Notes under the pieces: model-generated | Told to the model about the DNA's origin: nothing | Database searches by the model: none | Seen by the model: only the letters and a program-made list of their open reading frames with translations | Made by a program: the position numbers and the translations under genes | Virus record (IMG/VR): IMGVR_UViG_3300045988_101805 | Coordinates: 1-35,912 of that record | Source of the DNA: a virus | Length of the DNA stretch: 35,912 nt | Direction: 5' to 3' (one strand) | In this document: positions 1-25,092 of the stretch, one piece after another | How the letters are laid out: every line of letters starts with the position of its first letter | How positions within the stretch are numbered: the stretch's first letter is position 1

Positions 1-88
1 AGCGTCGTGCTTATCAAGGTAGCTGTCTATTGTTTTATACAAATGGGCGGCTACTATTTTTATTGCTAATACTGCTGAAACAAAAGCT
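1..88. repeat. Terminal direct repeat, copy 1 (identical to 35825..35912)
   Basis: Read base by base: agcgtcgtgcttatcaagg...gaaacaaaagct occurs at both ends of the window. Confidence 0.95.
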
Positions 89-99
89 GTGCAAAGCAT
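1..99 (-). CDS. 5' part (33 codons) of a 49-aa small hydrophobic ORF spanning the circular junction
   Basis: ATG at 99..97 with a weak AGGA 6 nt upstream. Translates MLCTAFVSAVLAIKIVAAHLYKTIDSYLDKHDA and continues in frame at 35824. Below the ORF-track cutoff. Confidence 0.3.
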   Translation of the reverse strand, partial: MLCTAFVSAVLAIKIVAAHLYKTIDSYLDKHDA

Positions 100-174
100 T
101 AGCAGTCCTAAAATTATTACTTCCGTCTTTCTTCACCTCCTTACGCTGTTTTCTGTGAATAAAGCAATGTGTTA

Positions 175-203
175 TTGTTTTAAACGACCTTGTATGGTAA
201 TAT
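175..203 (+). promoter_or_regulatory. Sigma-A-type promoter for the 224..574 gene
   Basis: TTGTTT (175-180), 17-nt spacer, TG (195-196), TAATAT (198-203). AGGAG at 211-215 and ATG at 224 follow. Confidence 0.55.
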
Positions 204-223
204 TAAACAAAGGAGTGGTACAT

Positions 224-574
224 ATGCTTGATAAGAAATGCAGAAAGATTGTAAAATGCTGTTTAAAATATTATCCTGACGAAAGAACTATTCAAACAAC
301 AGATTTACAAAAACACCTAAATTTCAGCAAGATGGAAATACGCTATTGCTGTCAGAGATTGAATAAATTAGGTTTCTTTGATTCATTTCAAACTTCAATA
401 GAAGACACGGTTCATTTTGTTCCGAGTTATAAATTGTTTAATTATAAAGAACACGAAAGAACGAAGATTAAAGAGTTTTTGATAAACTCCGTAGCAATAC
501 CCGTCATCGTGTCAACACTATCAAGCATACTAATAACGCTGATAACACTGATGATATCAGGGATACTGCAATAG
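224..574 (+). CDS. Tail-anchored winged-helix-like protein (116 aa), unknown family
   Basis: ATG 224 follows AGGAG with good spacing. The 89..223 part of the track ORF has no RBS. N-terminus LQKHLNFSKMEIRYCCQRLNKLGFF is wHTH-like. C-terminus AIPVIVSTLSSILITLITLMISGIL is one TM helix. Confidence 0.6.
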   Translation: MLDKKCRKIVKCCLKYYPDERTIQTTDLQKHLNFSKMEIRYCCQRLNKLGFFDSFQTSIEDTVHFVPSYKLFNYKEHERTKIKEFLINSVAIPVIVSTLSSILITLITLMISGILQ

Positions 575-686
575 ATGTAAAAATCGGGTGTTTCATTAAC
601 CATTCAAGGATAAACACCTTATCTCGCCCCCCTTTTTAGTGTGGTAGTTGCATTTTGTAACATTTTTGAAATAGTCGCAAAATTAT

Positions 687-715
687 TTGACAAAATATAA
701 ATATTCTTGTATTAT
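687..715 (+). promoter_or_regulatory. Near-consensus sigma-A promoter for the 756..1412 gene
   Basis: TTGACA (687-692), 17-nt spacer, TATTAT (710-715). Confidence 0.65.
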
Positions 716-755
716 CGTTAAAGAAAGTAATATATTTACAGAAAGGAACATATTT

Positions 756-1412
756 ATGGATAAACTTTACTTTGACAATAATGCCGATGAAAATGCTGAA
801 ATTGATTTTCAGCAAATGCAATTATACATTTCTCGTAGTTTCGCTCAATTAGCTGAAAAATTGAAACCTATGTATGCTGAATTAGCAAAGGAAATGAGTA
901 AAAATATCGGACACGCACTTACCGAATCGTTAGCAAAACCGCTTGAATCCATAAGGATTACTTACACATTTTCTCCCGAAGTTATTAAAGCGTTTCAAGA
1001 ATGTATAGAAAGTTATTCTAAAAAATTTCAGTTTCCGCAAAACAATCACGAAATAACTGTTAATTTAAACAATAATGATATAAAAGTTATTAATAATTTC
1101 AACATAAATATCAACAATTATATAGTCACCGATAAATCAAATGAAAGCAAGAAAGTTTTCACATATGAACGAGTTATAGCCTTTCTGAATTTATTGCTTT
1201 CTATCATTTCTTTAATTCATACAGACAACAATCAACCTACCTGTCTGTGTGCTGAAACACAACAGGCTGTTGTTCAATTGCAAGAACAAATTGACGGAAC
1301 AAATAACTTGATAGATAAATTTGTCAAACAATTAAATGAGTCCACAGATGATGAAATTACTTCTGATGATTCGAAAGTATCGAATGAAAAAGATCATTCA
1401 GATTCTGAATAA
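756..1412 (+). CDS. Hypothetical 218-aa protein: helical N-terminus, Asn-rich centre, one TM segment, acidic C-terminus
   Basis: ATG 756 preceded by AAAGGAAC. Contains NLNNNDIKVINNFNININNY, the TM-like VIAFLNLLLSIISLIH, and an acidic tail DDEITSDDSKVSNEKDHSDSE. No family recognised. Confidence 0.6.
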   Translation: MDKLYFDNNADENAEIDFQQMQLYISRSFAQLAEKLKPMYAELAKEMSKNIGHALTESLAKPLESIRITYTFSPEVIKAFQECIESYSKKFQFPQNNHEITVNLNNNDIKVINNFNININNYIVTDKSNESKKVFTYERVIAFLNLLLSIISLIHTDNNQPTCLCAETQQAVVQLQEQIDGTNNLIDKFVKQLNESTDDEITSDDSKVSNEKDHSDSE

Positions 1413-1554
1413 CTGTCTCCGTACAAATCACCTTGCACCTTAGGTTTCTTATCATAGACTGCTGTAATGTAATCATAATCACAAACATTAAATTGATAGC
1501 AAATTGTACCCAATCAATGTTGCCTATAAATAAGCAGTTTGATAATTCGTTCAT
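1357..1554 (-). CDS. 65-aa hydrophobic small protein, convergent with and overlapping 756..1412
   Basis: Strong RBS GAGGAGGTGAGAAG immediately upstream of ATG 1554. Hydrophobic stretch WVQFAINLMFVIMITL. Overlaps the + gene by 56 nt. Confidence 0.45.
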   Translation of the reverse strand: MNELSNCLFIGNIDWVQFAINLMFVIMITLQQSMIRNLRCKVICTETVIQNLNDLFHSILSNHQK

Positions 1555-1583
1555 CTTCTCACCTCCTCGGTTAAACTATAAAG

Positions 1584-1614
1584 CTGAATAGAAACACACT
1601 CTATTCAGTTTTTT
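1584..1614 (+). terminator. Rho-independent terminator (hairpin + T-run), possibly bidirectional
   Basis: CTGAATAGA (1584-1592) pairs with TCTATTCAG (1600-1608), followed by TTTTTT (1609-1614). Confidence 0.6.
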
Positions 1615-1623
1615 GTTGGTTTG

Positions 1624-1830
1624 TTAGTTTAAAAAGATACGCACTATCCGCTTTTCATCTGTAATGTTAAGAACCTTGCAAATCAGAGCGGCTTCGTCAA
1701 TGGTAAATTTAGTTTTGCCTGAAATTTTCGCAGACAGCGTATTTACCGACACACCCAGCTTTTCTGCAAGTCTTGCCTGCGTGTAGCCTGCCTCGGCTAT
1801 TGCTCCTTTTAAACTGTTTGCGTTAAGCAA
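1624..1830 (-). CDS. XRE/Cro-type HTH protein (second copy, paralogue of 2295..2507)
   Basis: YTQARLAEKLGVSVNTLSAKISG is a classic HTH. GAGGTGATAACA precedes TTG at 1830. The track's GTG at 1839 lies inside the RBS. Confidence 0.8.
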   Translation of the reverse strand: MLNANSLKGAIAEAGYTQARLAEKLGVSVNTLSAKISGKTKFTIDEAALICKVLNITDEKRIVRIFLN

Positions 1831-1864
1831 TGTTATCACCTCTTTTTATAATTTTCATATGGTC

Positions 1865-1892
1865 TTGCACTTTCCTAATAATGTGATATAAT
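1865..1892 (+). promoter_or_regulatory. Extended -10 sigma-A promoter for the 1926..2099 gene
   Basis: TTGCAC (1865-1870), 16-nt spacer containing TTTCCTAA, TG (1884-1885), TATAAT (1887-1892). Confidence 0.6.
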
Positions 1893-1925
1893 TTCAGCAT
1901 AAATTAAGGAAAGGAGGGTTAAACT

Positions 1926-2099
1926 ATGATTACAGGCAATCATGAAAAAATTGCTTTTGATGTAACTAAGGAAATCGTTATTGCAAGATTGTCAAATTGT
2001 CAGCACGCTGTTGATAAAGAGCATGGTGAAAAAGTTGCTGATTATTTTGAAATAATCTACAATAGAATTCTTGAAATCGTTAATTCAGAAGAAAACTAA
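1926..2099 (+). CDS. 57-aa hypothetical protein
   Basis: Strong RBS AAAGGAGGG 7 nt before ATG 1926. Translates MITGNHEKIAFDVTKEIVIARLSNCQHAVDKEHGEKVADYFEIIYNRILEIVNSEEN. Below the ORF-track cutoff. Confidence 0.55.
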   Translation: MITGNHEKIAFDVTKEIVIARLSNCQHAVDKEHGEKVADYFEIIYNRILEIVNSEEN

Positions 2100-2106
2100 T
2101 CCTTAA

Positions 2107-2253
2107 TTAGCACACGGCTCTTGCTGACACCAACTCGGCAAGGGCTGTTGTTAATTTAGCAATAGTATCACCGTCATCACCGCTGTCACAGTTAACATAC
2201 TTTGTTATATGGTCACATAACAAAGAAATTAAAGTGTCAATTTGTTCTGGCAT
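2107..2253 (-). CDS. 48-aa hypothetical protein downstream of the cro-like gene
   Basis: RBS AAGGGGGTGAAAAATA then ATG at 2253. Translates MPEQIDTLISLLCDHITKYVNCDSGDDGDTIAKLTTALAELVSARAVC. Confidence 0.5.
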   Translation of the reverse strand: MPEQIDTLISLLCDHITKYVNCDSGDDGDTIAKLTTALAELVSARAVC

Positions 2254-2294
2254 TATTTTTCACCCCCTTAGTTTTGATTGGGTTTCAGTTTCCT

Positions 2295-2507
2295 TTAAGA
2301 AACCACATCAGCAAAAAAAATAGACATAATCTTATCTGAATTAAGTCCGAGAATTTTTGCAAGCTGTGCGATTTCTTCCTGCTTGAAACAAGTGACACCA
2401 TTTATCCTTGTATAAAGTGTCTTTTTATCAATTCCCATTTTTTCAGCAAGTTTTGGAATTGTAAAATTGTTTCTTGCAATTTCAGCTTTAAGATCACTTG
2501 TATTCAT
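2295..2507 (-). CDS. Cro-like XRE HTH regulator, divergent from the repressor
   Basis: FTIPKLAEKMGIDKKTLYTRING is an HTH. GAGGTGATAAAA precedes ATG 2507. Divergent from the CI-like gene across a 162-bp switch region. Confidence 0.85.
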   Translation of the reverse strand: MNTSDLKAEIARNNFTIPKLAEKMGIDKKTLYTRINGVTCFKQEEIAQLAKILGLNSDKIMSIFFADVVS

Positions 2508-2539
2508 TTTTATCACCTCGTTTCCTTTAGGATACTTAA

Positions 2540-2568
2540 ATTATATACTGCTTTTATTCCTTTGTCAA
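2540..2568 (-). promoter_or_regulatory. Consensus leftward (lytic, cro) promoter
   Basis: The minus strand reads TTGACA (2568-2563), 17-nt spacer, TATAAT (2545-2540). Flanked by CTTTAGGA at 2525-2532 and 2572-2579. Confidence 0.7.
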
Positions 2569-2608
2569 CCACTTTAGGAAACTTTTTTATATTTTTTCGG
2601 TTTAGTAG

Positions 2609-2636
2609 TTGCTTTTTTGAAACTTTGTGTTAAAAT
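2609..2636 (+). promoter_or_regulatory. Rightward (repressor) promoter
   Basis: TTGCTT (2609-2614), 16-nt spacer ending in TGT, TAAAAT (2631-2636). AAGGAGAG RBS precedes ATG 2670. Confidence 0.55.
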
Positions 2637-2669
2637 ATAGTTACAGACCTCTTATAAGGAGAGACAAAA

Positions 2670-3305
2670 ATGGATATAGGAAAAATGATTAACCAAAGAA
2701 GAACCGAATTAAAACTAACTCTTGAACAGGTAGGGCAAGTAGTTGGTGTCGGCAAGAGTACCGTCAAAAAATGGGAAGACGGTTATATATCTAATATGAG
2801 AAGAGATAAAATAGCTTTATTAGCCAAAGTCTTAAAAATGAACCCGGTTTCTTTTATTACTGGTGAATTTAAAGAAGAAGAAGACCAAGCAATCCCACTT
2901 CCGCAAACAAATGTATTTATGCGACCTGTGTATGACAGCATTTCGGCAGGGTTCGGAGCCGTTGCTCAGGATGTGCCTGTTGACTATATGCCTACATACA
3001 TCACTTGCCCCTCAGAACAGGATAAATACATATGGATAAATGTTCACGGCGATTCTATGAGCCCTCTGATTGATGACGGCAGTAAAATTCTTATTAAAAA
3101 ACAAACTTCCGTTGACAGCGGTCAGATTGCCGCAGTCCTCGTTGATGATGAAGAGGCTGTTGTTAAAAAGGTTCTTTACAGCGATAACACCGTTGAACTC
3201 CATTCAGTCAACCCCTACTATCCCCCACGAGTGTTCAAAAATAACGACATCACCCGTGTTCAAATCCTCGGTCTTGTAAAAGAAGTAAGTAAGGCTTTGC
3301 AGTAA
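2670..3305 (+). CDS. CI/LexA-like phage repressor (XRE HTH + S24 autopeptidase)
   Basis: N-terminal HTH LTLEQVGQVVGVGKSTVKKWEDG. C-terminal GDSMSP (catalytic Ser) and VVKKV (Lys), the S24 Ser-Lys dyad. Confidence 0.92.
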   Translation: MDIGKMINQRRTELKLTLEQVGQVVGVGKSTVKKWEDGYISNMRRDKIALLAKVLKMNPVSFITGEFKEEEDQAIPLPQTNVFMRPVYDSISAGFGAVAQDVPVDYMPTYITCPSEQDKYIWINVHGDSMSPLIDDGSKILIKKQTSVDSGQIAAVLVDDEEAVVKKVLYSDNTVELHSVNPYYPPRVFKNNDITRVQILGLVKEVSKALQ

Positions 3306-3368
3306 GCCGGCAACCGTAAGTGTAAAAACACATAAACCACGAATACTATAAAACAAGGAGGAATTCGT

Positions 3369-3590
3369 ATGTCAGCAAAAGAAAAAATCATCAATCTTAT
3401 AAACGACTTTTCAGAAGAACAGCTTGAAGAACTGCTCACTATGTTGCAAAGTTTAAGACATATCGTAGATGACGCAGAAGATGACGCTTATTGTCAGAAA
3501 CTCTATGACGAATACAAGAATAACCCGTCTGATCCGAATGAGAATGTCAGCCTTGAAAATTTTGCAAATGAGTTGGGGATAAATCTGTAA
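3369..3590 (+). CDS. Putative antitoxin of the RelE-type TA pair
   Basis: 73-aa acidic protein with RBS AAGGAGGA. Its stop overlaps the toxin ATG (TAATG at 3588-3592). Confidence 0.6.
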   Translation: MSAKEKIINLINDFSEEQLEELLTMLQSLRHIVDDAEDDAYCQKLYDEYKNNPSDPNENVSLENFANELGINL

Positions 3591-3841
3591 TGAAGTATAA
3601 AATTGAACTGAACAAAAAGGCTCAGAAGTTTATTAAATCTCAGCCCCGCAACCAACAAGAACGAATTTTGAAAGCTGTTTCAAAACTTCCTGACGGTGAT
3701 GTAAAGGCCTTGTCAGGAAACAGCAACGCTTACCGCCTGCGTGTCGGCAATTATCGTGTTATCTATGAAATCAATAACGATATTCTTCTCATAACCGTTG
3801 TTGATGTCGGCAACCGAGGTCAGGTTTATAAGAGAATATAG
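3590..3841 (+). CDS. relE: RelE/ParE-family type II toxin
   Basis: YRLRVGNYRVIYEINNDILLITVVDVGNRGQVY is the typical RelE/StbE C-terminal signature. 83 aa. Confidence 0.85.
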   Translation: MKYKIELNKKAQKFIKSQPRNQQERILKAVSKLPDGDVKALSGNSNAYRLRVGNYRVIYEINNDILLITVVDVGNRGQVYKRI

Positions 3842-3850
3842 GTAATAACT

Positions 3851-4081
3851 ATGACTTGCTTTTATTGTAAAGGTGATATGGTTGACAGCACAACAACCCA
3901 TGTTGAAGATTTGGGCAACTGCATTGTCATCATTCGCAATGTTCCTTGTTCAAAGTGCAGTCAGTGCGGAGAAGTATCCTACAACGGTACTGTATTAAGA
4001 CAGATTGAACAGGTTATTGACAACCTCAAAAATTCACTTACCGAGGTTGCTATCGTAAACTATAAGCCAAGTGTAGCTTAG
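3851..4081 (+). CDS. Stand-alone YgiT/MqsA-type zinc-ribbon protein
   Basis: CFYCKG ... VPCSKCSQCGE pattern (CxxC ... CxxC) with the V-P-x-x-x-C context typical of the YgiT-type Zn finger. No HTH domain follows. Confidence 0.7.
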   Translation: MTCFYCKGDMVDSTTTHVEDLGNCIVIIRNVPCSKCSQCGEVSYNGTVLRQIEQVIDNLKNSLTEVAIVNYKPSVA

Positions 4082-4093
4082 AATAAACCAAAA

Positions 4094-4136
4094 TAAAAAA
4101 ATCCGCCCTGCTCGACTGGTCCTCGAACAGAGCGGA
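4094..4136 (-). terminator. Minus-strand-oriented intrinsic terminator between the lysogeny genes and int
   Basis: 13-position stem 4102-4114 / 4124-4136 with 2 mismatches. The A-run 4094-4101 is a U-run only on the minus strand. Confidence 0.4.
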
Positions 4137-4192
4137 ATCACCTACACAGGGTGCAGATGATACGATTAAAACGCAAGATAATTGTATCACAT

Positions 4193-4228
4193 TCCCTTGT
4201 GTTTTGCAACAGTTTACAGCACAAGGGA
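4193..4228. repeat. 9-bp perfect inverted repeat upstream of int
   Basis: TCCCTTGTG (4193-4201) and CACAAGGGA (4220-4228), 18-nt spacer, about 38 nt before the int ATG. Confidence 0.6.
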
Positions 4229-4265
4229 TTTTTGCGCCCTTTTTTTCAGAAAAGGAGTGTATTAA

Positions 4266-5417
4266 ATGCGTTGTAAAAAATGTAAAAAGCAAATTCCGGA
4301 CAAATCTAACTTCTGCAATTGGTGCGGAACAGCAGTTGTCAAGAAACCGCACAGAAGAGCAGACGGAAACTATGAAAAATCAATCTGCATAAACGGCAGG
4401 CGAAAAACCTTTTATGCCAAGACCGAACGAGAGCTTACAAGGAAAATTGCAATGTACAGTGCTGAGCAGGAGCGTAGTAAACGATTTGATGAGCTGGCAG
4501 AGGATTACAAGGATAATTATCTTCCTGAGCTTTCCCCTACTACACAGAAAAGTTACAATACTATTCTTGATAAGTTTACAGATGAATTTAAAGGTCGTGC
4601 GGTAAATGAGATTAAGCCGTCGGATATTCAGAAGAGTATTGACAACCTTTCAAGAACATATACTGCGAAAACAAAACGAAACTACCTTGCCACATTGTCA
4701 AGTGTATTCTCTTTCGCTGTGAGAGCCTCAGAGTACGGAATTGACACTAACCCTTGTAACTATATTAAAATTAAAGGAAAGCCGTCCACGGAGCGTAGAA
4801 TAGCCACAGATGAAGAGATTAAAATAATTTGCAGGAATACAAAAGTTCATTTTGGGTTGTTCGCATTCTTCTTGCTGACAACGGGTTGTCGCAGGTCAGA
4901 GGCTTTGGCTCTCAAATATGAGGATATAGACTTTAAGAATGATGTCATACATATAACAAAGTCGGTCACTTGGGAAAAATCAATCCCTGAATTGAAAGCT
5001 CCTAAGACAGTTAAAGGCATTCGTGATATTTTTCTTGTACCGCACTTGAAAGATGTACTGCCAAAACGAAAAAGAGGTCTTATCTTCCCTTCTTCCAAAG
5101 GTCAGTTGATGACGGAGTGTCAATATGCTACTGAATGGCATAAATATTGTGCTGAATCGGGATTAGATGATTATGCCAATGAAAACAACCTCTCTCCCTT
5201 GACTGCTCATTGCCTTAGGCACAATTATGCTACGATACTTAACGAAGCAGGCATTGACACAAAACAGGCTATGCAGTTGCTCGGTCATGCAAATGAGGCA
5301 ACCACAAAAGATGTTTATACAGCGATAACTGAAAGAAAAAATAAATCCGACAAAGTTCTTGTAACGGAAAAATTTGAAAAACGCATTCAGGAAATCACCG
5401 CAGCCGACAACCCTTGA
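4266..5417 (+). CDS. int: Tyrosine integrase with N-terminal zinc ribbon
   Basis: CKKCKK...CNWCG ribbon. Catalytic residues in GCRRSEAL (R), HCLRHNYAT (HxxR) and LLGHANEATTKDVY (H...Y). RBS AAAGGAG. Confidence 0.93.
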   Translation: MRCKKCKKQIPDKSNFCNWCGTAVVKKPHRRADGNYEKSICINGRRKTFYAKTERELTRKIAMYSAEQERSKRFDELAEDYKDNYLPELSPTTQKSYNTILDKFTDEFKGRAVNEIKPSDIQKSIDNLSRTYTAKTKRNYLATLSSVFSFAVRASEYGIDTNPCNYIKIKGKPSTERRIATDEEIKIICRNTKVHFGLFAFFLLTTGCRRSEALALKYEDIDFKNDVIHITKSVTWEKSIPELKAPKTVKGIRDIFLVPHLKDVLPKRKRGLIFPSSKGQLMTECQYATEWHKYCAESGLDDYANENNLSPLTAHCLRHNYATILNEAGIDTKQAMQLLGHANEATTKDVYTAITERKNKSDKVLVTEKFEKRIQEITAADNP

Positions 5418-5418
5418 T

Positions 5419-5439
5419 TTTACGAAACTTTTACGTAAC
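5419..5439 (+). promoter_or_regulatory. Candidate arm-type integrase-binding repeats (P arm)
   Basis: TTTACGAAAC (5419-5428) and TTTACGTAAC (5430-5439), 11-bp phasing. The same dimer recurs at 5640-5660. Confidence 0.5.
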
Positions 5440-5495
5440 TTGTATGTATTTTGATGTCTTTTTGTGTCCTGTACTGACACTCTGAAAGCAAAAGA

Positions 5496-5541
5496 AAAAC
5501 AAGCCGATTGTTCGATGAACACTGAACTTTCGGCTTGTTTT
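5496..5541 (+). terminator. Hairpin terminator downstream of int
   Basis: AAAACAAGCCGA (5496-5507) pairs with TCGGCTTGTTTT (5530-5541). T-rich tail follows. The loop is long. Confidence 0.5.
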
Positions 5542-5549
5542 CTTAACTT

Positions 5550-5568
5550 TTTTTGAGAATCTCAAAAA
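5550..5568. repeat. 19-bp palindrome adjacent to the att core
   Basis: TTTTTGAGA a TCTCAAAAA, 9-bp perfect arms, ending 9 nt before the tRNA-like segment. Confidence 0.6.
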
Positions 5569-5577
5569 GTCACAATT

Positions 5578-5603
5578 TGGCGGAGACGGAGGGATTCGAA
5601 CCC
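5578..5603 (-). other. attP core: 26-nt mimic of a tRNA 3' end (T-loop + acceptor + CCA), probably tRNA-Ser-like
   Basis: The minus strand reads GGGTTCGAATCCCTCCGTCTCCGCCA (T-loop TTCGAAT, T-stem CCCTC, acceptor CGTCTCC, discriminator G, CCA). No D-arm or anticodon arm follows, so it is a fragment. Confidence 0.7.
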
Positions 5604-5639
5604 GATTTTACAGCAGATAAACACTGTATGAATGCCATT

Positions 5640-5660
5640 TTTACGAAACCTTTACGAAAT
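5640..5660 (+). promoter_or_regulatory. Candidate arm-type integrase-binding repeats (P' arm)
   Basis: TTTACGAAAC (5640-5649) and TTTACGAAAT (5651-5660), same 11-bp phasing and orientation as 5419-5439. Confidence 0.5.
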
Positions 5661-5812
5661 TACCTAAGTTAATATAGCAATCAAGTTATGATTGCGGTGC
5701 GACTTTCCTTACCTCATTGTACTTTACAATAGTATAAAAGTCAAGAAATTAGATTCATAAGATTGATTTATGGATTATTTTATAAATTGTTTATATTCTT
5801 GTGAGAAAACGC

Positions 5813-5841
5813 TTGACAAATACACCTATTAGGTGTATAAT
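5813..5841 (+). promoter_or_regulatory. Consensus sigma-A promoter with a 15-bp palindromic operator in its spacer
   Basis: TTGACA (5813-5818), 17-nt spacer, TATAAT (5836-5841). The spacer carries the perfect palindrome ACACCTA t TAGGTGT (5822-5836). Confidence 0.7.
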
Positions 5842-5866
5842 ATAGACAATGAAAGGGGGTGAGGAA

Positions 5867-5965
5867 ATGAAAAAGCCAAAAAAATCCACCATCAAAATGG
5901 TCGAATTAATAATCAAAGCGATACTTGCCCTATCTGCTCTGATAACAGCCATTAGATGGTGGTAA
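5867..5965 (+). CDS. 32-aa basic/hydrophobic peptide (type I toxin-like or small membrane peptide)
   Basis: RBS AAAGGGGGTGAGGAA then ATG 5867. Translates MKKPKKSTIKMVELIIKAILALSALITAIRWW. A GC-rich hairpin GAGGGGCTTAAGCCCCTC follows. Confidence 0.5.
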   Translation: MKKPKKSTIKMVELIIKAILALSALITAIRWW

Positions 5966-6041
5966 CATCAAGAGGGGCTTAAAGCCCCTCCCCCCTTATG
6001 GGGATAATATTATTATATCAGTATGAAAGGAAAAATGCAAT

Positions 6042-6209
6042 ATGAAGAAAAATAATTTTTGGTTATTCAGTCTTGTGTGCCTGATTATTGTATGTGTGGC
6101 AAGTAAATTCTTTGTTGTTGCTCGTGTAGCCTTGGGAATAAATGCAGTTATTGTACTTGCACAAACTATTCACGAATTTGTAATGTTCAGGAGAAATCAC
6201 AATGAATAA
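6042..6209 (+). CDS. 55-aa two-helix membrane protein
   Basis: RBS AAAGGAAAA. Translates MKKNNFWLFSLVCLIIVCVASKFFVVARVALGINAVIVLAQTIHEFVMFRRNHNE. Overlaps the next gene by 8 nt. Confidence 0.5.
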   Translation: MKKNNFWLFSLVCLIIVCVASKFFVVARVALGINAVIVLAQTIHEFVMFRRNHNE

Positions 6210-6378
6210 AATCAAAGAAGCAAGAATTGCAACAGGATTGAGCAGAGCAGAAATTGCAAAAATAATGGAAGTACCGTACCGCACTTGGGAAAATTGGGAA
6301 AGCGACAACAACCCGAACTACCCGAAACCATACTTTGAGCGACTTATTCTGAAAGAGCTTAAAAATATCCATAAATAA
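6202..6378 (+). CDS. 58-aa HTH-like small regulator
   Basis: RBS CAGGAGAAA. Translates MNKIKEARIATGLSRAEIAKIMEVPYRTWENWES..., an XRE-like HTH. Confidence 0.6.
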   Translation: MNKIKEARIATGLSRAEIAKIMEVPYRTWENWESDNNPNYPKPYFERLILKELKNIHK

Positions 6379-6383
6379 CAAAC

Positions 6384-6417
6384 TCCCCTCACCCACTTTT
6401 TACGGCGGATGAGGGGA
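6384..6417. terminator. Bidirectional hairpin between the micro-cassette (+) and the lysis genes (-)
   Basis: TCCCCTCA (6384-6391) pairs with TGAGGGGA (6410-6417), followed by ATATTTTT. Confidence 0.55.
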
Positions 6418-6449
6418 ATATTTTTGCAATTATGTGTTCGGTTTAAAAC

Positions 6450-7247
6450 TTATTTTATTTTTGCGGTATAGTCAAGGGCAATCCAGCCTGCACCGCTTTT
6501 GAGTTTGCCCCACTTTTTAGCGCCTGTGCCTGTTTTTTCGGCAACAATCGTGTACGCTCCGCCCTTGGGGATTGAGCCGCACACGGCATAGTTTGTGCCT
6601 GCACCTTTGCGAATATTTACACCGTCATTTGCGGTAATCCTGACAATGTACGGCTTAAACGCTTTTGATACACTCGGCTTTGCAGTCTGTGCAGGCTTTG
6701 TTGTGCCTGATGAGCTTGCCGACTTGTATTTATAGCCGAAATAGTTGCACATACCCTTGCAGATTGCCTCAGCGATAGCGTTTGTGTTATTGCGAATCCA
6801 GTTTGAGCCTGTCACGGTGTCATGAAATTCACACTCAACATACACAGTTAATGCCCTCGGCACATTGATTTCGTAAAGGTCGGTTTTATAGCTAACCGAA
6901 TCATCCTTGCCGGGCGAGATTGCTCCGAGGGCATTTTTCACCGATTCGGCAGCCTTTCTGCCGTTTGAGTTCAGGCAAAACACTCTTGTACCGCCTGTGT
7001 ATTTGCCGTTAAAAGCGTTGGTGTGAATCGGCATATGAATGTCTGCACCGAACTTGTCCGATTCGGGACAGCGTGTCTGCATAAGCGTTCCCGACTTTGC
7101 GACCATAACCTCAAAACCACAACGCTTAAGAGCTTTGGCTGTTGCGGCGGCGATTTTGTCGCACTGAGCCATTTCGTTTGTACCGCCAGTTGCATAGGTG
7201 TTTCTGTTCTGATTTGACGGACTGAGATAAATTCTTTTTGCTGGCAT
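6450..7247 (-). CDS. Endolysin: N-acetylmuramoyl-L-alanine amidase (Amidase_3-like) + C-terminal SH3 wall-binding domain
   Basis: YLSPSNQ..., IHMPIHTNAF and YVECEFHD are amidase-type Zn/catalytic motifs. The C-terminus GVNIRKGAGTNYAVCGSIPKGGAYTIV...WGKLKSGAGWIALDY is SH3b-like. Confidence 0.9.
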   Translation of the reverse strand: MPAKRIYLSPSNQNRNTYATGGTNEMAQCDKIAAATAKALKRCGFEVMVAKSGTLMQTRCPESDKFGADIHMPIHTNAFNGKYTGGTRVFCLNSNGRKAAESVKNALGAISPGKDDSVSYKTDLYEINVPRALTVYVECEFHDTVTGSNWIRNNTNAIAEAICKGMCNYFGYKYKSASSSGTTKPAQTAKPSVSKAFKPYIVRITANDGVNIRKGAGTNYAVCGSIPKGGAYTIVAEKTGTGAKKWGKLKSGAGWIALDYTAKIK

Positions 7248-7249
7248 AA

Positions 7250-7462
7250 TTATTCCTCACTTTCTTTAACTTCCGGCAAGCCACCGACACTTGTAAGCAT
7301 TGAGAGAATGCCGGCAAGAAGTGTTGAACTTGCAACCGCAACCCAGTTTACATCGCTCATTACTACCGCAACTGAGAGTGTTGCCGCTGCAGTCTGTGCC
7401 ATTGTCTTTGCAGCTCTGATGAGTGCCGCAACCGCCCATTTCTTAATTTTCTTCTTATTCAT
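7250..7462 (-). CDS. Holin (r1t-holin-like, 70 aa)
   Basis: ATG 7462 with AAAGGA RBS. KKWAVAALIRAAKTMAQTAAATL...VNWVAVASSTLLAGILSMLTSV gives two TM helices plus a charged tail. Lies directly upstream of the endolysin. Confidence 0.8.
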   Translation of the reverse strand: MNKKKIKKWAVAALIRAAKTMAQTAAATLSVAVVMSDVNWVAVASSTLLAGILSMLTSVGGLPEVKESEE

Positions 7463-7775
7463 TATTTTCATCCTTTCTAATAGGGTTAGTCGGTAAGTCC
7501 ATGACCTTCTCGTGCATATCGTCCATTGTGCCGTTCTGCCCGAGGTGATGATATGACTGATAACATTTATCATAAGCATCTTTGGCATAAACTTCAATCC
7601 ACCCTCTTTTTATGTATTTTTCGCCCGAGCGGATAAGCTCCGCCCTGAGCAATGACTGTGTACCTTTGCCGATTGCCTTAATCTTGCTCCACTCGGTTTT
7701 TACGATTGCAACAATTGCGGTAAGTATAACGCCAAAAAGGGCCTGCACCCAATATTGTATAATCCAATCCCACAT
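7455..7775 (-). CDS. N-terminally membrane-anchored protein of the lysis cassette
   Basis: WIIQYWVQALFGVILTAIVAIV is a TM helix. The stop overlaps the holin start by 8 nt. Confidence 0.6.
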   Translation of the reverse strand: MWDWIIQYWVQALFGVILTAIVAIVKTEWSKIKAIGKGTQSLLRAELIRSGEKYIKRGWIEVYAKDAYDKCYQSYHHLGQNGTMDDMHEKVMDLPTNPIRKDENNE

Positions 7776-7776
7776 T

Positions 7777-9459
7777 TTAACTTACTCCTTTTATATCCCA
7801 ATCGCAATGGTCGGCTGGTGCAGCATACAACTTCTTAATTTCAGATATATTGACGCAGCGGTCAACAGTAAGTACATTCGGCGTGTCAGAATATTCACCT
7901 TTCAGCGTTCTTGCCTGAATTTCAGTATTACCAAAATCACAGTTGCGAATAGTAATACTTGAACCTGTTTTGATTGACAATCCAAAATCGCTATTGTCAG
8001 CATTTTCGTGGTTCTGATAGCCAACAGTGCAATTTGTGGGGATAATTTTGCAGTTTTCAATCAATCCTACCTCACCAAAGCTGTGACCACATCCGAGCGC
8101 TGGAACCGTTGTTTTGCCAGAATAATCAACGCAATCCGCTCTGCCACCCCACTTAAATATGCAATTAGCGACTGTCCATTCTGTTGCATAACCTGTACCG
8201 CCAGATTCGAGATGTAAAGCGTAACGGATATTTTTACAATCAAATGTAAAACCTTTGATGTGAGTGTGGACATTCAAATCCAAATGAAACGGACATTTTT
8301 TGATTATATCTTTTGACATCAATTTAGACTTATCAAACCCTGTCGCACCGTCCCACTTAATTATTGTAGCCTGTGGATTGTATATATTTTCAGACTCATA
8401 ATAGACATAGTCTTTCATCATTACCCCACGATAACCCACAAGTCCCACATCAGACATTCCTGCAAATTTATCTTGCATATCTGTATATGTGCCTTGTGCA
8501 ACGATGATTGTGTAGCGATTATGGTAGTTGTTGTCTGTTATGCTATCATTAGCAGACAGAATAGAATTGAACTTCGTAACGCCAAAACCGTCAGTATTCT
8601 CGTTGTAATCATTTGAAATATACAGATAATTCATAGCGTAGTCGGGAGCCTGGTACAACTCAGGTTTAATTCTTTCGCTTATAAAATCCGGATTTGCGTA
8701 CGCTGATTTTTTGTTGTTCTGTTCAAGTTGAAGATTACAACTGTTGTCAACAAGTCTATTTGTAGCAACCGCAACTTTAATCGAATTTACGGTTACATTT
8801 TCTGTCGCTGTATAAGTAGCCACTGCATTTTTAAAAGCACTAACTTCTGACAAGAGCCAAGATGAGCTAATTGCTGTCTGTCCGTTCGCAGGATAGAAAA
8901 CACAGCCACCGTTTGCAATGTTAGCAAAATTCTGCAACGATAAGCAATACGCTTTGCCTTTCTCAAGAGTAACCGCACGCTTGAGTTTGAGATAAAAATT
9001 AACCGCAGCGGTAGATGTGCCGCTTAAACTGATTTTGCCTTTGACAACTGTAACGGTTACACCGTTTTGATGTTGTGAATAATCTGCCAAATAAGCCAAA
9101 TTTATACTCTTAGTAACATCAAATAATTTGCTACTGTCTACTTTTTCGCCAAATTTATTTATGACATCATCTGCCAAGTTGACAGCTCTGACCGTGCCTG
9201 CTGCATCTTTAATTCCGTCTGTGATACCGTAACCTGCAAGGGTACTGGCTTTATCTGCTTTTTCCGCAAGATTTGCGTTGACTGTATCAAGCCTTGCTCC
9301 AAGTGAATTAGAACCGCCTCTTGCCGTGGCTATTTCGGTTTCAAGTGCAATTGCTCCGTCTGTTGCCCGTTCAATCCCCTCGTCCATATGGTTGAGGTTG
9401 TCGGCATTGAGAGCAGGAGCAGAGCCGTTCACAAAGCCGATTTTATTGTATTTGTTCAT
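7777..9459 (-). CDS. Tail fibre / receptor-binding protein
   Basis: Last large tail gene. The N-terminus GFVNGSAPALNADNLNHMDEGI is a motif I associate with Firmicute phage fibres. The Gly/Cys/Asn-rich C-terminal half could be beta-helical. Confidence 0.7.
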   Translation of the reverse strand: MNKYNKIGFVNGSAPALNADNLNHMDEGIERATDGAIALETEIATARGGSNSLGARLDTVNANLAEKADKASTLAGYGITDGIKDAAGTVRAVNLADDVINKFGEKVDSSKLFDVTKSINLAYLADYSQHQNGVTVTVVKGKISLSGTSTAAVNFYLKLKRAVTLEKGKAYCLSLQNFANIANGGCVFYPANGQTAISSSWLLSEVSAFKNAVATYTATENVTVNSIKVAVATNRLVDNSCNLQLEQNNKKSAYANPDFISERIKPELYQAPDYAMNYLYISNDYNENTDGFGVTKFNSILSANDSITDNNYHNRYTIIVAQGTYTDMQDKFAGMSDVGLVGYRGVMMKDYVYYESENIYNPQATIIKWDGATGFDKSKLMSKDIIKKCPFHLDLNVHTHIKGFTFDCKNIRYALHLESGGTGYATEWTVANCIFKWGGRADCVDYSGKTTVPALGCGHSFGEVGLIENCKIIPTNCTVGYQNHENADNSDFGLSIKTGSSITIRNCDFGNTEIQARTLKGEYSDTPNVLTVDRCVNISEIKKLYAAPADHCDWDIKGVS

Positions 9460-10654: not shown

Positions 10655-10670
10655 TTTTAAGAATCACCCC

Positions 10671-11072
10671 TTAATACTCAATCAGCTCAACCGTAATCGG
10701 CTGATAGGTTATATCACTTTTTTCGGCATTCATTACGGTATATTCAATATCAGGAATATAAAAATAAGAGGTGTAATAGCTGTTCGTTTCATCGTTCCAA
10801 TAAGTTACCCTGCACTTTCTCTGTAATTTATTCGCCATTGAGAGGTTGATAATCGACTGAAAATCAATCTTTTCGTTAAGATGAAGAATGTGAGTTGAAA
10901 ACGAAATTTTTGTTTTGTAATTTGGCAGCGTTGCCCTTTGAAGCGTACCGTTCTGATCTCGTTCCGCAGAAGTTTCAAGTCGCTGATTCGGAGTTGACGA
11001 AAATGCGTTAATGTACTTATTCGGCATGATGTTGTTGCCGAATTTAAGCAAATAGCCGTTATAATTTGACAT
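10671..11072 (-). CDS. Distal tail protein-like (short Dit-position protein)
   Basis: 133 aa immediately after the tape measure gene. RBS AAGGGGA. Assigned by synteny. Confidence 0.55.
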   Translation of the reverse strand: MSNYNGYLLKFGNNIMPNKYINAFSSTPNQRLETSAERDQNGTLQRATLPNYKTKISFSTHILHLNEKIDFQSIINLSMANKLQRKCRVTYWNDETNSYYTSYFYIPDIEYTVMNAEKSDITYQPITVELIEY

Positions 11073-11084
11073 ATCATTCCCCTT

Positions 11085-14006: not shown

Positions 14007-14101
14007 ATTCACCACTTCCTTTCATTTTAGATTCTTTAAAAACAGGCATAAAAACAGCGCACACTGTTATGATGTACGCTAATAAAATTTTGCAAAAGAA
14101 C

Positions 14102-14123
14102 AGCCACCCCGTTTGGAGTGGCT
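14102..14123. terminator. Hairpin terminator after the moron, upstream of the TMP gene
   Basis: AGCCACCCC gttt GGAGTGGCT. The T-run is clean on the + strand and interrupted (GTTCTTTTGC) on the - strand. Confidence 0.5.
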
Positions 14124-14130
14124 TTTTGTT

Positions 14131-14859: not shown

Positions 14860-14894
14860 ACACTCTCCTTAATAAATTTGTTAGTGTATGTTAC

Positions 14895-14923
14895 ATTTTA
14901 TCACTATATATTAACATTGTCAA
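14895..14923 (-). promoter_or_regulatory. Consensus sigma-A promoter dedicated to the moron
   Basis: The minus strand reads TTGACA (14923-14918), 17-nt spacer, TAAAAT (14900-14895), followed by the AAGGAGAG RBS. Confidence 0.65.
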
Positions 14924-25090: not shown

Positions 25091-25092
25091 AA

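Follow-up and report, generated by a model that had tools for sequence, protein, structure and literature searches.

Gene content of the island

The window, the whole stretch of 35,912 nucleotides analysed here, belongs to a family of temperate siphophages of Ruminococcus bromii. Comparison of the window with itself showed that bases 1..88 are identical to 35825..35912, an 88-bp terminal repeat that gives a circular genome of 35,824 bp. An island of ~4.1 kb spans this junction, with leftward genes on either side: the cro-type gene (2507) and the conserved early genes (33960). Continuation across the junction had been proposed in an earlier, sequence-only reading of this DNA and is genuine, as the identity of the window ends demonstrates; the length of ~4.3 kb given there shrinks to ~4.1 kb once the repeat is closed into a circle. 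The island has genes on both strands: five rightward (backward) genes, each with a promoter-like site upstream, are interleaved with small leftward (forward) ORFs. From the repressor leftwards around the circle, the features are the following (SD, Shine-Dalgarno sequence; TM-like, membrane-helix-like).

2670..3305, + strand: LexA/CI-type repressor (Peptidase_S24 E 1.8e-24, HTH_3)
2609..2636, + strand: candidate promoter for this repressor (promoter motif)
2540..2568, - strand: candidate early promoter PR (TTGACA-17-TATAAT, 12/12 match)
2295..2507, - strand: cro-type repressor, first gene of the leftward early operon (HTH_3 E 8.7e-6, DUF739 E 7e-6)
2114..2148, + strand: hairpin with T-rich tail, terminator-like for r57, within the o48 3' end (hairpin scan)
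2107..2253, - strand: o48, small early ORF, 48 aa (SD, relatives)
1926..2099, + strand: r57, backward gene, 57 aa (SD AAGGAGG)
1865..1892, + strand: promoter-like site of r57 (TTGCAC, 16 nt, TGa-TATAAT)
1624..1830, - strand: HTH68, orphan second cro-type gene (HTH_3 E 1.9e-10)
1580..1612, + strand: terminator-like hairpin, strong T-run on the + strand only (hairpin scan, sequence)
1357..1554, - strand: o65, small early ORF, 65 aa, one TM-like segment (SD, relative)
756..1412, + strand: geneB, backward, 218 aa, TM-like segment (ORF list, public-collection calls)
687..715, + strand: promoter-like site of geneB (TTGACA-17-TATTAT, 11/12)
442..603, - strand: possible extra small early ORF, 53 aa, weak SD, status uncertain (conservation in loci)
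224..574, + strand: geneA, backward, 116 aa, C-terminal TM-like helix (SD AAAGGAG; public-collection gene call)
175..203, + strand: promoter-like site of geneA (TTGTTT, 17 nt, TGg-TAATAT)
1..129, - strand: junction ORF o49, 5' part (SD 141..134, in-frame ACG 129..127, first ATG 99..97)
35825..35912: copy of bases 1..88 (assembly overlap, circular contig)
35774..35824, - strand: o49, 3' part, overlapping the end of Abi-alpha by 35 nt (ORF list, sequence)
34993..35808, + strand: Abi-alpha (DUF4393), backward defence gene, 271 aa (PF14337 E 9.7e-45; phrog_2232)
34941..34969, + strand: promoter-like site of Abi-alpha (TTGCTT, 17 nt, TGt-TATTAT)
34733..34915, - strand: o60, small early ORF, 60 aa (phrog_3882 E 4.9e-12)
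34042..34749, + strand: backward zinc-ribbon/DUF4145-like gene, 235 aa from TTG 34042 (phrog_1305 E 1.7e-39)
33985..34013, + strand: promoter-like site of the DUF4145-like gene (TTGTGT, 17 nt, TGt-TACAAT)
33817..33960, - strand: first ORF of the conserved leftward early block, which resumes past the island (ORF list, relatives)

All ORFs of the sequence-only reading lie where it had placed them and its overlaps are exact: 17 nt between 34733..34915(-) and the gene ending at 34749(+), 35 nt between the junction ORF (35774..35824+1..99(-)) and the gene ending at 35808(+), and 56 nt between 1357..1554(-) and the gene ending at 1412(+), with a 7-nt gap from 2099(+) to 2107(-). It had counted four rightward genes, to which geneA (224..574) adds a fifth, and had missed the cro-type HTH gene 1830..1624(-), the + strand hairpin 1580-1612 and the possible small ORF 603..442(-). 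The DUF4145-like gene, which it began at ATG 34012, probably starts at TTG 34042, judging by alignment with relatives and the promoter position.

The GC content of the island is 0.32-0.33, against 0.38-0.46 elsewhere in the genome. On its - strand (4.1 kb), four ORFs of at least 45 aa are preceded by an SD, where the density on the antisense strand outside the island (0.15 per kb) predicts ~0.6; in 500 shuffles the mean was 0.13 and the highest count 2. Both strands of the island are gene-dense, beyond chance. An SD had been claimed for every small leftward ORF. It is strong for o60 (GAGGTGA, 4 nt, ATG 34915), o65 (GGAGGTGA, 4 nt, ATG 1554) and o48 (GGGGGTGA, 7 nt, ATG 2253), but ahead of ATG 99 the junction ORF shows no more than a weak AGGA; the strong SD of o49 (141..134) serves the in-frame ACG 129..127, a codon that is ATG in some relatives. 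The cro-type gene starts at ATG 2507 behind the SD GAGGTGA, and an identical copy of its protein, named from R. bromii, is found on more than 1000 contigs.

Promoter-like sites and terminators

The promoter sites previously proposed at 175, 687, 1865 and 34941 are all present as motifs, and a fifth precedes the DUF4145-like gene. Sites 175, 1865 and 34941 have an extended -10 element (TGn), and site 687 reads TTGACA-17-TATTAT. A strict motif (TTGnnn, 16-18 nt, TGn, TAnnnT) has eight matches on the + strand of the whole genome, six of them inside the 6.4 kb carrying + strand genes, where ~1.4 would be expected under a uniform spread. A general promoter scan showed no enrichment over shuffles (14 found, 13.4 expected). 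The site at 34941..34969 is conserved in relatives ahead of a different backward gene, r172. Promoters and terminators of the island are predictions at motif level. The hairpin at 1580-1612 would end the geneB transcript ahead of HTH68. Its - strand face (1584-1608) could attenuate PR transcripts ahead of most of the island; transcription of the small ORFs and the early block would then have to start elsewhere, from another promoter. HTH68 (dN/dS 0.13-0.16) is 72% identical to a protein of L050-L059 that is the cro adjoining a different LexA-type repressor.

A recombination hotspot behind cro

Comparison of ~60 related prophages revealed a recombination hotspot 3' of cro, in which backward genes are swapped at SD/start boundaries. 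Prophages whose cro and repressor are ~96% identical in DNA carry differing sets of backward genes (r186, r172, r125, r59, r76, geneA, Abi, DUF4145), with small forward ORFs interleaved. The blastn breakpoints recur at 2256/2260, 1836, 1552, ~142, ~35793, 34912/34930 and 34736, which are SD/start or stop codons of forward ORFs. The Abi and r172 cassettes have a common ~60-bp junction, which contains the forward-ORF start and the backward-gene promoter, and L058 matches window 34912..1629 without a break (98%), there behind a different cro. The r57 gene is always accompanied by o48, as a 420-bp insert (1836..2256). The ORF at 442..603(-), which overlaps the geneA 3' end by 133 nt, is kept in 24 loci, in some of which geneA is reduced to a 3' remnant.

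The best explanation, to which we give a probability of about 0.72, is a hypervariable cargo hotspot behind cro where the early lytic operon has taken up five genes in backward orientation, forming a noncontiguous operon. The repetition of convergent pairs had been read as design. This is a weak argument, because any backward insert in a packed operon meets one operon gene 3'-to-3', and the pairs are mostly a consequence of insertion geometry. One could go further and regard the whole arrangement as neutral: backward morons would pile up in the hotspot, each insertion replacing the stop of the preceding small ORF, with no selected antisense regulation and no interaction between small ORFs and their neighbours. 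The position of the breakpoints at ORF boundaries fits such a scenario, as do the last 4-6 residues of o49, which differ (DEDKHQ or ENEN) according to the gene inserted behind it. So do o60-type and o49-type ORFs found without their partners (L052-54 and L059 have an o60-type ORF without the DUF4145 gene), and the r57 gene, which has a 59-aa backward homologue in L002 (E 3e-5) while the forward partners of r57 and r59 are not alignable.

Abi-alpha and its convergent neighbour

The Abi-alpha gene makes a purely neutral origin unlikely. The family assignment is firm (Pfam 153 bits for a cut-off of 29; PADLOC PDC-S47 E 1.9e-44), and its orientation bias is near-universal in the Firmicutes phage contexts examined. 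The homologue alone runs against its neighbours in 8 of 9 cultured-phage contexts (80alpha gp19, phiNM2 gp18, StB20-like gp43, IPP23, Javan489, phi4B1, Roseburia phage Jekyll and Latilactobacillus P1; Moraxella Mcat6 is the sole exception) and is opposed to them in 5 of 5 metagenomic lineages. Its convergent overlap with the o49 family also persists at Abi identities as low as 37-46%. An o49-type ORF lies beside Abi-alpha in every Clostridia-type homologue context checked; it converges on and overlaps the gene in L077, L078, L081, L074-76 and L079 (Abi 44-62% identical), having previously gone uncalled in L074-76 and L079, and in phage Jekyll (Abi 37% identical), whose ORF is 41% identical to o49 (E 1e-6). 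Furthermore, the antisense arrangement of tha/ith in 80alpha is required for the balance of immunity and autoimmunity (PMC11087260).

Judging by its retention across distant phages, observed directly, the Abi-alpha/o49 pair exceeds insertion geometry. We found no report in the literature of an association between Abi-alpha and an o49-type small membrane protein. It had been suggested that pairs in relatives might travel as cassettes; Abi-alpha and o49 do so in Clostridia-type contexts, but o60 and o49 also occur without their partner. Because o49 lies beside the non-homologous r172 in ~20 loci and beside a mere 3' remnant of Abi in 4-5 loci, its link to Abi-alpha is not obligatory. The o49 protein may serve self-immunity by acting against Abi-alpha, although any inhibitory role of the small proteins is one that we infer.

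Extending this idea to the whole island, all four (or five) pairs would be cognate defence and counter-defence genes like Tha-Ith or Tai-Ati: every small protein would inhibit the product of the gene that it overlaps, and the island would be a tandem of immunity/self-immunity switches. Small overlapping antisense inhibitors are documented for both systems, and the Abi-alpha/o49 linkage is conserved. The DUF4145-like gene (a member of its 90% cluster carries this name; CPxC...C and GNDxxHY are invariant in the alignment with relatives) has homologues in the same backward arrangement in Streptococcus IPP26, Javan253 and Anaerostipes AC844P2, and small convergent ORFs adjoin such genes in Streptococcus and Anaerostipes phages. 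Neither o65/geneB (adjoining in 11 of the 11 loci carrying o65) nor o48/r57 is separated in any compared locus. Nevertheless, we find this extension improbable. The co-occurrence of these two pairs comes from near-identical DNA in which the genes overlap or abut, o60 and o49 are found alone or with a different partner, the small ORFs next to DUF4145-like genes are of unrelated families (phrog_3882 and phrog_4488), and dN/dS between o48 alleles is ~1. A plasmid-borne abi-alpha with its own promoter gives Abi, so a lytic-phase partner is unneeded for defence, a result that is silent on self-immunity.

The small leftward ORFs as genes

That the small ORFs are no genes at all, only chance frames lying in spacers and 3' UTRs within a rightward array of four genes, is very hard to sustain. 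They do fall in + gene spacers, with o65 entirely inside the predicted geneB 3' UTR, codon usage gives o48 and o65 ambiguous scores, and o48, o49 and o65 lack distant homologues. Against this stand the strong, correctly spaced SDs, the excess over both controls above, the match of o60 to a phage family (phrog_3882; dN/dS 0.24-0.45), the exclusively in-frame indels of an o49 family conserved to 27-60% identity, and the persistence of forward ORFs in loci where the + gene is lost. The substitutions of o65 in a 77%-identical relative are conservative (dN/dS 0.2-0.3, few sites). The relatives of o48 (52-79% identity) are of equal length, with the hydrophobic pattern kept and an invariant C-terminus; its coding status is only probable because dN/dS is ~1 between close alleles.

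The hydrophobic peptides o49 and o65, predicted as small single-helix membrane peptides with 3'-overlapping convergent transcripts, recall type I toxins whose mRNAs are controlled by overlapping RNAs, such as txpA/ratA and bsrG/SR4 of Bacillus prophages. Such a function is highly improbable here: the convergent partners are protein-coding genes of 218-271 aa instead of small RNAs, no Rfam family matched anywhere in the window, and in many phages o49 follows cro within the lytic operon and shows no evident promoter of its own.

Comparison with known systems

The sequence-only reading knew of no description of such an architecture. Noncontiguous phage operons switching defence genes between lysogeny and lysis were published in 2024 (PMC11087260, PMC11364771); the concept is that of Saenz-Lahoya et al. 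2019, and the phage case that of Rostol et al. 2024 (PMC11087260). Like the window, 80alpha and phiNM1 of S. aureus are temperate Firmicutes siphophages with single genes, under their own promoters (predicted ones in the window), antisense inside a cro-driven early operon. The backward DUF4393 gene gp19 in the early operon of 80alpha is a homologue of 34993..35808 (26% identity, E 2e-16, 82% coverage). As with o49, a small membrane-type ORF converges on the DUF4393 gene (phiNM2 gp17, unannotated in 80alpha), with no detectable homology to o49. Direct RNA-seq of 80alpha revealed a strand switch on induction around antisense genes homologous or analogous to the island cargo; the experiments on whether antisense placement matters functionally concerned tha/ith and not the DUF4393 gene (PMC11087260). 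In phiNM1 lysogens, the DUF4393 homologue is the most abundant prophage protein (42% of prophage protein by proteomics; bioRxiv 10.1101/2025.10.23.684294). The antisense genes of 80alpha/phiNM1 are on in lysogeny, switch at induction and are scattered, whereas the window, known from sequence alone, has five within 4 kb directly behind cro and a host among the Clostridia, a gut commensal.

Tha-Ith (80alpha/phiNM2, PMC11087260) is another prophage defence gene with a small convergent gene overlapping its 3' end (64 nt in 80alpha), and opposite life-cycle expression states are proposed for the genes of both systems. The polarity is reversed: the 80alpha defence gene belongs to the cI operon, and it is the small gene that has been inserted antisense and carries a promoter of its own. 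The small gene of Tha-Ith is an inhibitor, a role that is at most putative for the small ORFs of the window, and the DUF4145-like protein has no demonstrable relation to Tha (hhalign probability <1%). In Tai-Ati of phi80 (PMC11364771), a constitutive, divergent immune gene likewise breaks up a lytic operon, to which the neighbouring counter-defence gene belongs, but this operon is the Q-dependent late one, in a lambdoid phage of Gram-negative hosts, and the proteins are unrelated. Abi-alpha is a prophage abortive-infection protein by experiment, with its own mapped promoter, and confers the Abi phenotype from a plasmid under that promoter (PMC6356687). This protein, ef2833 of Enterococcus faecalis V583 prophage 6, shares with the window protein the Pfam family DUF4393/Abi_alpha, a prophage location, an own promoter (predicted in the window) and a similar length (272 and 271 aa); the likeness is drawn via the family model and not by direct comparison, and Abi activity here is predicted by homology. 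Neither gene orientation nor a small partner ORF is mentioned for ef2833 (PMC6356687).

Morons and prophage defence hotspots resemble the island as independently transcribed cargo between backbone genes, of atypical composition, variable among relatives and often defence-related. HK97 gp15 and lambda bor/lom are morons. Prophage defence at P2/P4 hotspots was reportedly described by Rousset et al. in 2022, and lysogeny-expressed defence genes of mycobacteriophages are said to have been described by Dedrick et al. in 2017. The window differs in that its inserts are consistently antisense, their 3' ends overlap early genes, and exchange takes place at the SD/start of small early ORFs. Excludons also involve opposed, overlapping neighbours, expressed in a mutually exclusive way via transcriptional interference and RNase III (PMC7154746; ExcludonFinder PMC12288877), but they are defined from transcript maps, and the window from its letters only.

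A putative lysogeny-lysis switch

In the noncontiguous operon that we favour, the cargo would consist of the DUF4145-like gene, Abi-alpha, geneA, geneB and r57, each with its own predicted sigma-70-type promoter and inserted at boundaries of small early genes. The earlier proposal that the + genes are cargo is supported by their promoter-like sites, low GC, presence or absence among near-identical prophages and the Abi-alpha homology; their expression in the lysogen, like all expression states given here, is what we infer. In the lysogen, a CI-type repressor would close PR and the backward genes would be transcribed from their own promoters, giving the host phage defence (Abi-alpha) and probably also membrane-level exclusion functions. 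Homology supports defence for only one of the five genes (Abi-alpha), and geneB had no family match in Pfam, phrog and PADLOC searches. The rightward hairpins at 1580-1612 and 2114-2148 would halt backward transcripts short of the cro-type genes. Upon induction, PR transcription would cross the island leftward, express the small early ORFs and collide head-on with the backward promoters, so that the two strands would be expressed in a largely exclusive way. Cassettes would recombine at the SD/start of small forward ORFs, with the forward ORF reading a few codons into the insert, and the Abi-alpha/o49 pair may represent a defence gene with its self-immunity factor. In summary, the layout is a new example and not a new principle, as the idea of the switch has been published (Rostol 2024; the Tai/Ati study of 2024; the phiNM1 lysogen proteomics of 2025).

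Genome organisation and control region

The first 88 bases of the window are identical to positions 35825..35912, an exact 88-bp direct terminal repeat, and the window is therefore a circular assembly with a true length of 35,824 bp. The features on which the analysis rests are the following, where forward genes share the leftward direction of the early operon and backward genes (the putative cargo) oppose it.

4266..5417, + strand: tyrosine integrase
2670..3305, + strand: LexA/CI-type repressor with Peptidase_S24 and HTH_3 domains
2568..2540, - strand: leftward promoter with perfect consensus
2507..2295, - strand: cro-type gene
2107..2253, - strand: o48, small forward ORF
1926..2099, + strand: r57, backward gene
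1624..1830, - strand: HTH68, second cro-type gene
1357..1554, - strand: o65, small forward ORF
756..1412, + strand: geneB, backward gene
224..574, + strand: geneA, backward gene
35774..35824 joined to 1..129, - strand: o49, small forward ORF across the junction
34993..35808, + strand: Abi-alpha, backward gene
34733..34915, - strand: o60, small forward ORF
34042..34749, + strand: DUF4145-like gene, backward

All long ORFs from 33969 down to 6450 are on the - strand. Three operator-like GTTTC-N6-GAAAC palindromes lie in the control region, two between repressor and cro (2520..2535 and 2608..2623) and a third at the cro 3' end (2288..2303), a layout similar to OR/OL/OD of lactococcal phage TP901-1. 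In a search for CI operators inside the island, this motif, with up to one mismatch, occurred only at 2288, 2520, 2608, and 17893; the site at 17893 is probably due to chance, and total matches are no more frequent than in shuffled sequences. The operator search thus gave no support to CI control of the cargo promoters. The Rfam scan of the whole window returned no family reaching its threshold.

Identical copies of the island proteins are named from Ruminococcus bromii genomes and gut viromes. Megablast of both island halves against the phage collection found no close cultured phage at the DNA level, and tblastn of o60 gave no match, so relatives were located through exact-protein look-ups.

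Five antisense genes are nested in the early operon

From cro leftward, the gene order is cro, o48, (r57), HTH68, o65, (geneB), (geneA), o49, (Abi-alpha), o60, (DUF4145-like), and then e50, the first ORF after the island, and onward, with backward genes in parentheses. Opposite-strand genes are thus nested among the co-directional genes of an operon, the arrangement called a noncontiguous operon (Saenz-Lahoya 2019; for phages, Rostol 2024). The forward ORFs of the island have Shine-Dalgarno (SD) sequences with short spacers. At the level of motifs, the backward genes have predicted promoters of their own, since each is preceded at 30-110 nt by a -35/extended -10 site; six of the eight matches of the strict motif on the + strand of the genome fall within the 6.4 kb that hold + strand genes. 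Terminator-like hairpins follow only r57 and geneB among the five backward genes. The T-runs of these hairpins (1580-1612 and 2114-2148) work in the + direction only; on its - strand side, the 1584-1608 hairpin has no T-run. We found no terminator-like sites between convergent partners in 33300..35912. These features, together with the physical overlap of the ORFs, are indirect signs that the operon genes on either side of a backward gene may share one RNA overlapping the antisense transcript. The GC content of the island is 0.32-0.33, compared with 0.38-0.46 elsewhere. Its - strand has about one ORF of 45 aa or more with an SD per kb, which is the density of the coding strand elsewhere, versus 0.15 per kb on the antisense strand elsewhere and a maximum of 2 in shuffles.

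A sequence-only reading had described four convergent pairs in this stretch, and its ORFs, overlaps, and four promoter candidates were all recovered. A fifth promoter candidate precedes the gene it placed at 34012, whose true start is likely the TTG at 34042. Its inventory lacked a fifth backward gene (geneA, 224..574), the second cro-type gene (1830..1624, HTH_3 E 1.9e-10), the two + direction hairpins, and a possible small ORF at 603..442.

HTH68 has a counterpart outside this immunity group: a protein 72% identical to it is the cro of a heteroimmune group of R. bromii phages (L050-L059). There it adjoins a different LexA-type repressor, whereas in the window it lies within the early leftward operon without that repressor. 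Its dN/dS is 0.13-0.16, and it might act on co-resident heteroimmune prophages.

The cargo includes a putative abortive infection gene

The product of 34993..35808 matches the Abi-alpha/DUF4393 profile PF14337 over its full length (153.4 bits for a cut-off of 29, model positions 1-196 of 196) and the PADLOC profile PDC-S47 (E 1.9e-44). Abi-alpha of Enterococcus faecalis prophage 6 (ef2833) has its own mapped promoter and was shown experimentally to cause abortive infection, with premature lysis of infected cells and loss of plaquing (PMC6356687). This phenotype belongs to ef2833; the window gene is a predicted Abi-alpha by family match. In the DUF4145-like protein, a zinc ribbon is accompanied by an invariant GNDxxHY motif. 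GeneA, geneB, and two backward genes of related loci, r172 and r186, encode segments resembling membrane helices, which would fit exclusion-type functions.

The small forward ORFs as genes

We regard o49, o60, and o65 as genes, o48 as a probable gene, and 603..442 as uncertain. For o60, the match to phrog_3882 has an E-value of 4.9e-12. The o49 family shows only in-frame indels and is recognisable in distant phages at 27-60% identity. Compared with a 77%-identical relative, o65 has only conservative changes, and relatives of o48 at 52-79% identity preserve its amphipathic pattern. The values of dN/dS, which on close alleles are based on very few sites, are 0.24-0.45 for o60 and about 1 for close alleles of o48; the value for o49 against a 47-aa form is meaningless because their last codons are not homologous. 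Codon-usage log-odds did not discriminate for o48 and o65. Forward ORFs also remain at loci where the backward gene has been lost. Gene assignment was based on the gene calls of the collection and on blastn breakpoints. Three calls from home-made gene callers (f13, f17, and f62) were rejected as reverse-frame artefacts, and their choice of f18 over geneA was set aside.

The SD sequences assigned by the sequence-only reading are strong and well spaced for o48, o65, and o60. The junction ORF is a less simple case, in which an in-frame ACG (129..127, - strand) follows 6 nt after the strong SD, GAGGTGA (141..134). This codon is also ACG in most relatives, and it is ATG in L015 and in 59-aa public clusters; the comparison took in proteins P0116 and P0127. 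The ACG reflects either non-AUG initiation or a widespread start down-mutation. The window copy additionally lacks one Ile codon, in frame.

Two observations concern the use of both strands. In the o48 family, the invariant C-terminal residues (TTALAELVSARA) are specified by bases that also form the + strand terminator hairpin of r57 (2107..2150), a possible dual use of one sequence. The 53-aa leftward ORF at 442..603 (- strand) shares 133 nt with the 3' end of geneA and scores better than that gene in codon usage; it is kept in 24 related loci, some with only a 3' remnant of geneA.

Backward genes are exchanged at conserved junctions

We gathered 59 related R. bromii prophage and phage loci in four ways: by identical cro (L001-L010), by Abi-alpha (L011-L017), by o65 (L050-L059), and by a scan of viral contigs (L018-L047). 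Phages about 96% identical in repressor-cro carry different gene sets directly behind cro. The constant pattern is one of small forward ORFs alternating with backward genes, the latter including genes of 186, 172, 125, 76, and 59 aa, geneA, Abi-alpha, and the DUF4145-like gene. The blastn breakpoints relative to the window recur at 2256/2260, 1836, 1552, ~142, ~35793, 34912/34930, and 34736, each of them the SD/start or stop of a forward ORF. A moron, as defined by Hendrix and Juhala, is reportedly an extra gene present in some but not other close relatives at a gene boundary, and is also said to have atypical base composition and its own promoter and terminator flanking the insert. The backward genes are indeed present or absent among close relatives at gene boundaries. 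The block of HTH68, o65, and geneB corresponds to 'cro-o65-[geneB]' in a group of heteroimmune phages, and window positions 34912..1629 are contiguous in L058 at 98%, from which we infer that the unusually long island is a fusion of two variable regions.

The repetition of pairs had been read as design, with partners possibly travelling together as cassettes. This holds only in part. The pairs o48/r57 and o65/geneB are never separated in our sample, where the loci are near-identical DNA. O60-type ORFs occur without the DUF4145-like gene in L052-54 and L059 (homology at 34736..34930 only). O49-type ORFs lie beside the non-homologous membrane protein r172 in about 20 loci and beside only a 3' remnant of Abi in L028 and L042-45. 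The forward partner of r59, a homologue of r57 (E 3e-5), is unalignable with o48. The reading as designed pairs does not hold, and the repetition largely reflects the geometry of backward insertion in a packed operon and recombination at conserved SD junctions. The last 4-6 residues of o49 vary with whatever DNA follows, as expected if a forward ORF reads into inserted DNA until a stop. A type I toxin-antitoxin arrangement does not fit, as the convergent partners are protein-coding (218-271 aa) and the window has no Rfam match. Two further comparisons gave no homology: r172 is unrelated to Abi-alpha, and o48 is unalignable with a 46-aa ORF of L002.

The cassettes of Abi-alpha and r172, which are not homologous, have in common a junction of about 60 bp (window 34905..34975; L003 10775..10850) in which the SD/start of a forward ORF lies together with the -35/extended -10 of a backward gene. 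This junction serves both as a portable promoter and as an anchor for recombination. A second cargo hotspot lies in the integrase-repressor interval of L001-L010, where prophages that otherwise resemble one another differ in their cargo, with Fic, SIR2_2, ThsB_TIR with SLATT, a TPR protein, and an HTH-Peptidase_M78 protein as the alternatives.

The same layout occurs in other phages

We surveyed a sample of Abi-alpha contexts comprising nine from cultured phages and five metagenomic lineages. In eight of the nine cultured-phage contexts, the homologue stands alone in an orientation opposite to that of its neighbours (80alpha gp19, phiNM2 gp18, Staphylococcus epidermidis StB20-like gp43, pneumococcal IPP23, Javan489, Bacillus phi4B1, Roseburia phage Jekyll, and Latilactobacillus P1), the exception being Moraxella Mcat6. 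Most of the eight lie within early lytic genes; the flanks are morphogenesis genes in phi4B1 and the neighbours hypothetical proteins in Latilactobacillus P1. In all five metagenomic lineages (44-62% identity to the window protein), the gene is antisense and directly behind cro or an antirepressor. Homologues of the DUF4145-like gene are backward in early genes, with small overlapping convergent ORFs, in pneumococcal IPP26, Javan253, and Anaerostipes AC844P2; those of Javan197 and AP45 are not backward. In AC844P2 (2438..5346), three backward genes lie within 3 kb of the leftward operon, each overlapping a convergent leftward ORF by 4-20 nt. With three such pairs there, the tandem arrangement is not peculiar to R. 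bromii phages.

Published precedents for the expression logic

The sequence-only reading proposed that the backward genes are expressed in the lysogen and silenced by antisense lytic transcription, and considered this architecture undescribed. It has in fact been published (PMC11087260, PMC11364771). In 80alpha, the HEPN defence protein Tha and the small overlapping antisense gene ith form a 'noncontiguous operon' (Rostol et al. 2024, PMC11087260). In that study, direct RNA-seq found opposite strands expressed in the lysogenic and lytic states, and a switch on induction for further antisense genes lying inside lytic operons; reciprocal regulation between sense and antisense, by polymerase collision or RNase III, was shown only for 80alpha. 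The Tai/Ati study found the same logic in phi80 and predicts many defence/counter-defence pairs in noncontiguous operons (PMC11364771). The proposed mechanism is therefore a rediscovery of the one described in the 80alpha and phi80 studies. Overall, the original observation is confirmed with corrections, and its interpretation is partly supported.

One cargo family of the window, DUF4393, is among the published examples. The legend of Extended Data Fig. 8 names orf11, orf17, and orf72, with orf19 mentioned in its text (PMC11087260); the DUF4393 homologue of 80alpha is gp19, and we took 'orf19' as gp19 from the numbering only. In phiNM1 lysogens, the DUF4393 protein makes up 42% of prophage protein (2025 preprint, bioRxiv 10.1101/2025.10.23.684294). 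By analogy with these experiments on homologues, it is plausible that the window genes would follow the same lysogenic and lytic expression logic.

In the Tha-Ith pair, a small convergent gene encoding the inhibitor lies over the 3' end of the defence gene, and the positional counterpart in the window is o60, with a 17-nt overlap. The DUF4145-like protein was rejected as a homologue of Tha (BLASTP E 5; hhalign of the family against Tha-1/2, probability 0.07%, E 0.68). The position of the catalytic Arg of Tha (HEPN Rx4-6H) aligns with the Gly of the invariant GNDxxH of the family, and the DUF4145 matches of Tha-1 and of a close relative of the window protein are both sub-threshold.

A candidate convergent partner of Abi-alpha

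The o49 family consists of small single-pass membrane proteins of 52-60 aa, encoded on the lytic strand, with the core AKI(I/V)A.(H/Y)..K.ID.(F/Y)L and, in most members, also IMDLI.WAK. An o49-type ORF converges on and overlaps Abi-alpha in the window, in all R. bromii loci having Abi, and in L077, L078, L081, L074-76, and L079, although the gene calls of L074-76 and L079 do not include it. A convergent overlapping pair is also present in Roseburia phage Jekyll, with Abi 37% and o49 41% identical (E 1e-6). At the same position, phages of staphylococci and pneumococci carry small membrane ORFs that are not homologous (phiNM2 gp17, StB20-like gp44, and a 54-aa ORF in IPP23, to which o49 has no significant similarity). 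We found no mention of a small convergent partner of Abi-alpha in the searchable papers. In 80alpha (NC_009526), we observed an unannotated 38-aa membrane-type ORF at 3264..3380 (- strand), between gp18 and gp19; its sequence is identical to that of phiNM2 gp17, and it runs convergently to gp19, the DUF4393 gene.

The parallel to Ith and Ati, together with the lysis phenotype of Abi-alpha, led us to propose that, in Clostridia-type phages (Ruminococcus, Roseburia, and related metagenomic lineages), Abi-alpha may not be a single-gene system. It would instead form a conserved convergent, 3'-overlapping pair with an o49-type protein that is made only on prophage induction and neutralises Abi-alpha, thus providing self-immunity. 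We hold this tentatively, with a probability of roughly 0.3, because o49 persists beside r172 and beside Abi remnants. If true, this would add a third case to the principle known from Ith and Ati and offer a way into the mechanism of Abi-alpha.

Significance

The general principle is already known, with experimental demonstrations for staphylococcal phages (PMC11087260) and coliphage phi80 (PMC11364771); the element that may be new is the o49-type partner of Abi-alpha. Our analysis extends the noncontiguous operon arrangement of phages to prophages of a keystone human gut commensal, in an unusually dense island with five antisense cargo genes in 4 kb, and identifies the region downstream of cro as promising ground for finding new defence and exclusion genes. 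The value lies mostly in the density of this array in a phage of a gut commensal and in the most useful product of the work, the testable prediction that the small membrane ORF converging on Abi-alpha is a possible partner or antidote.
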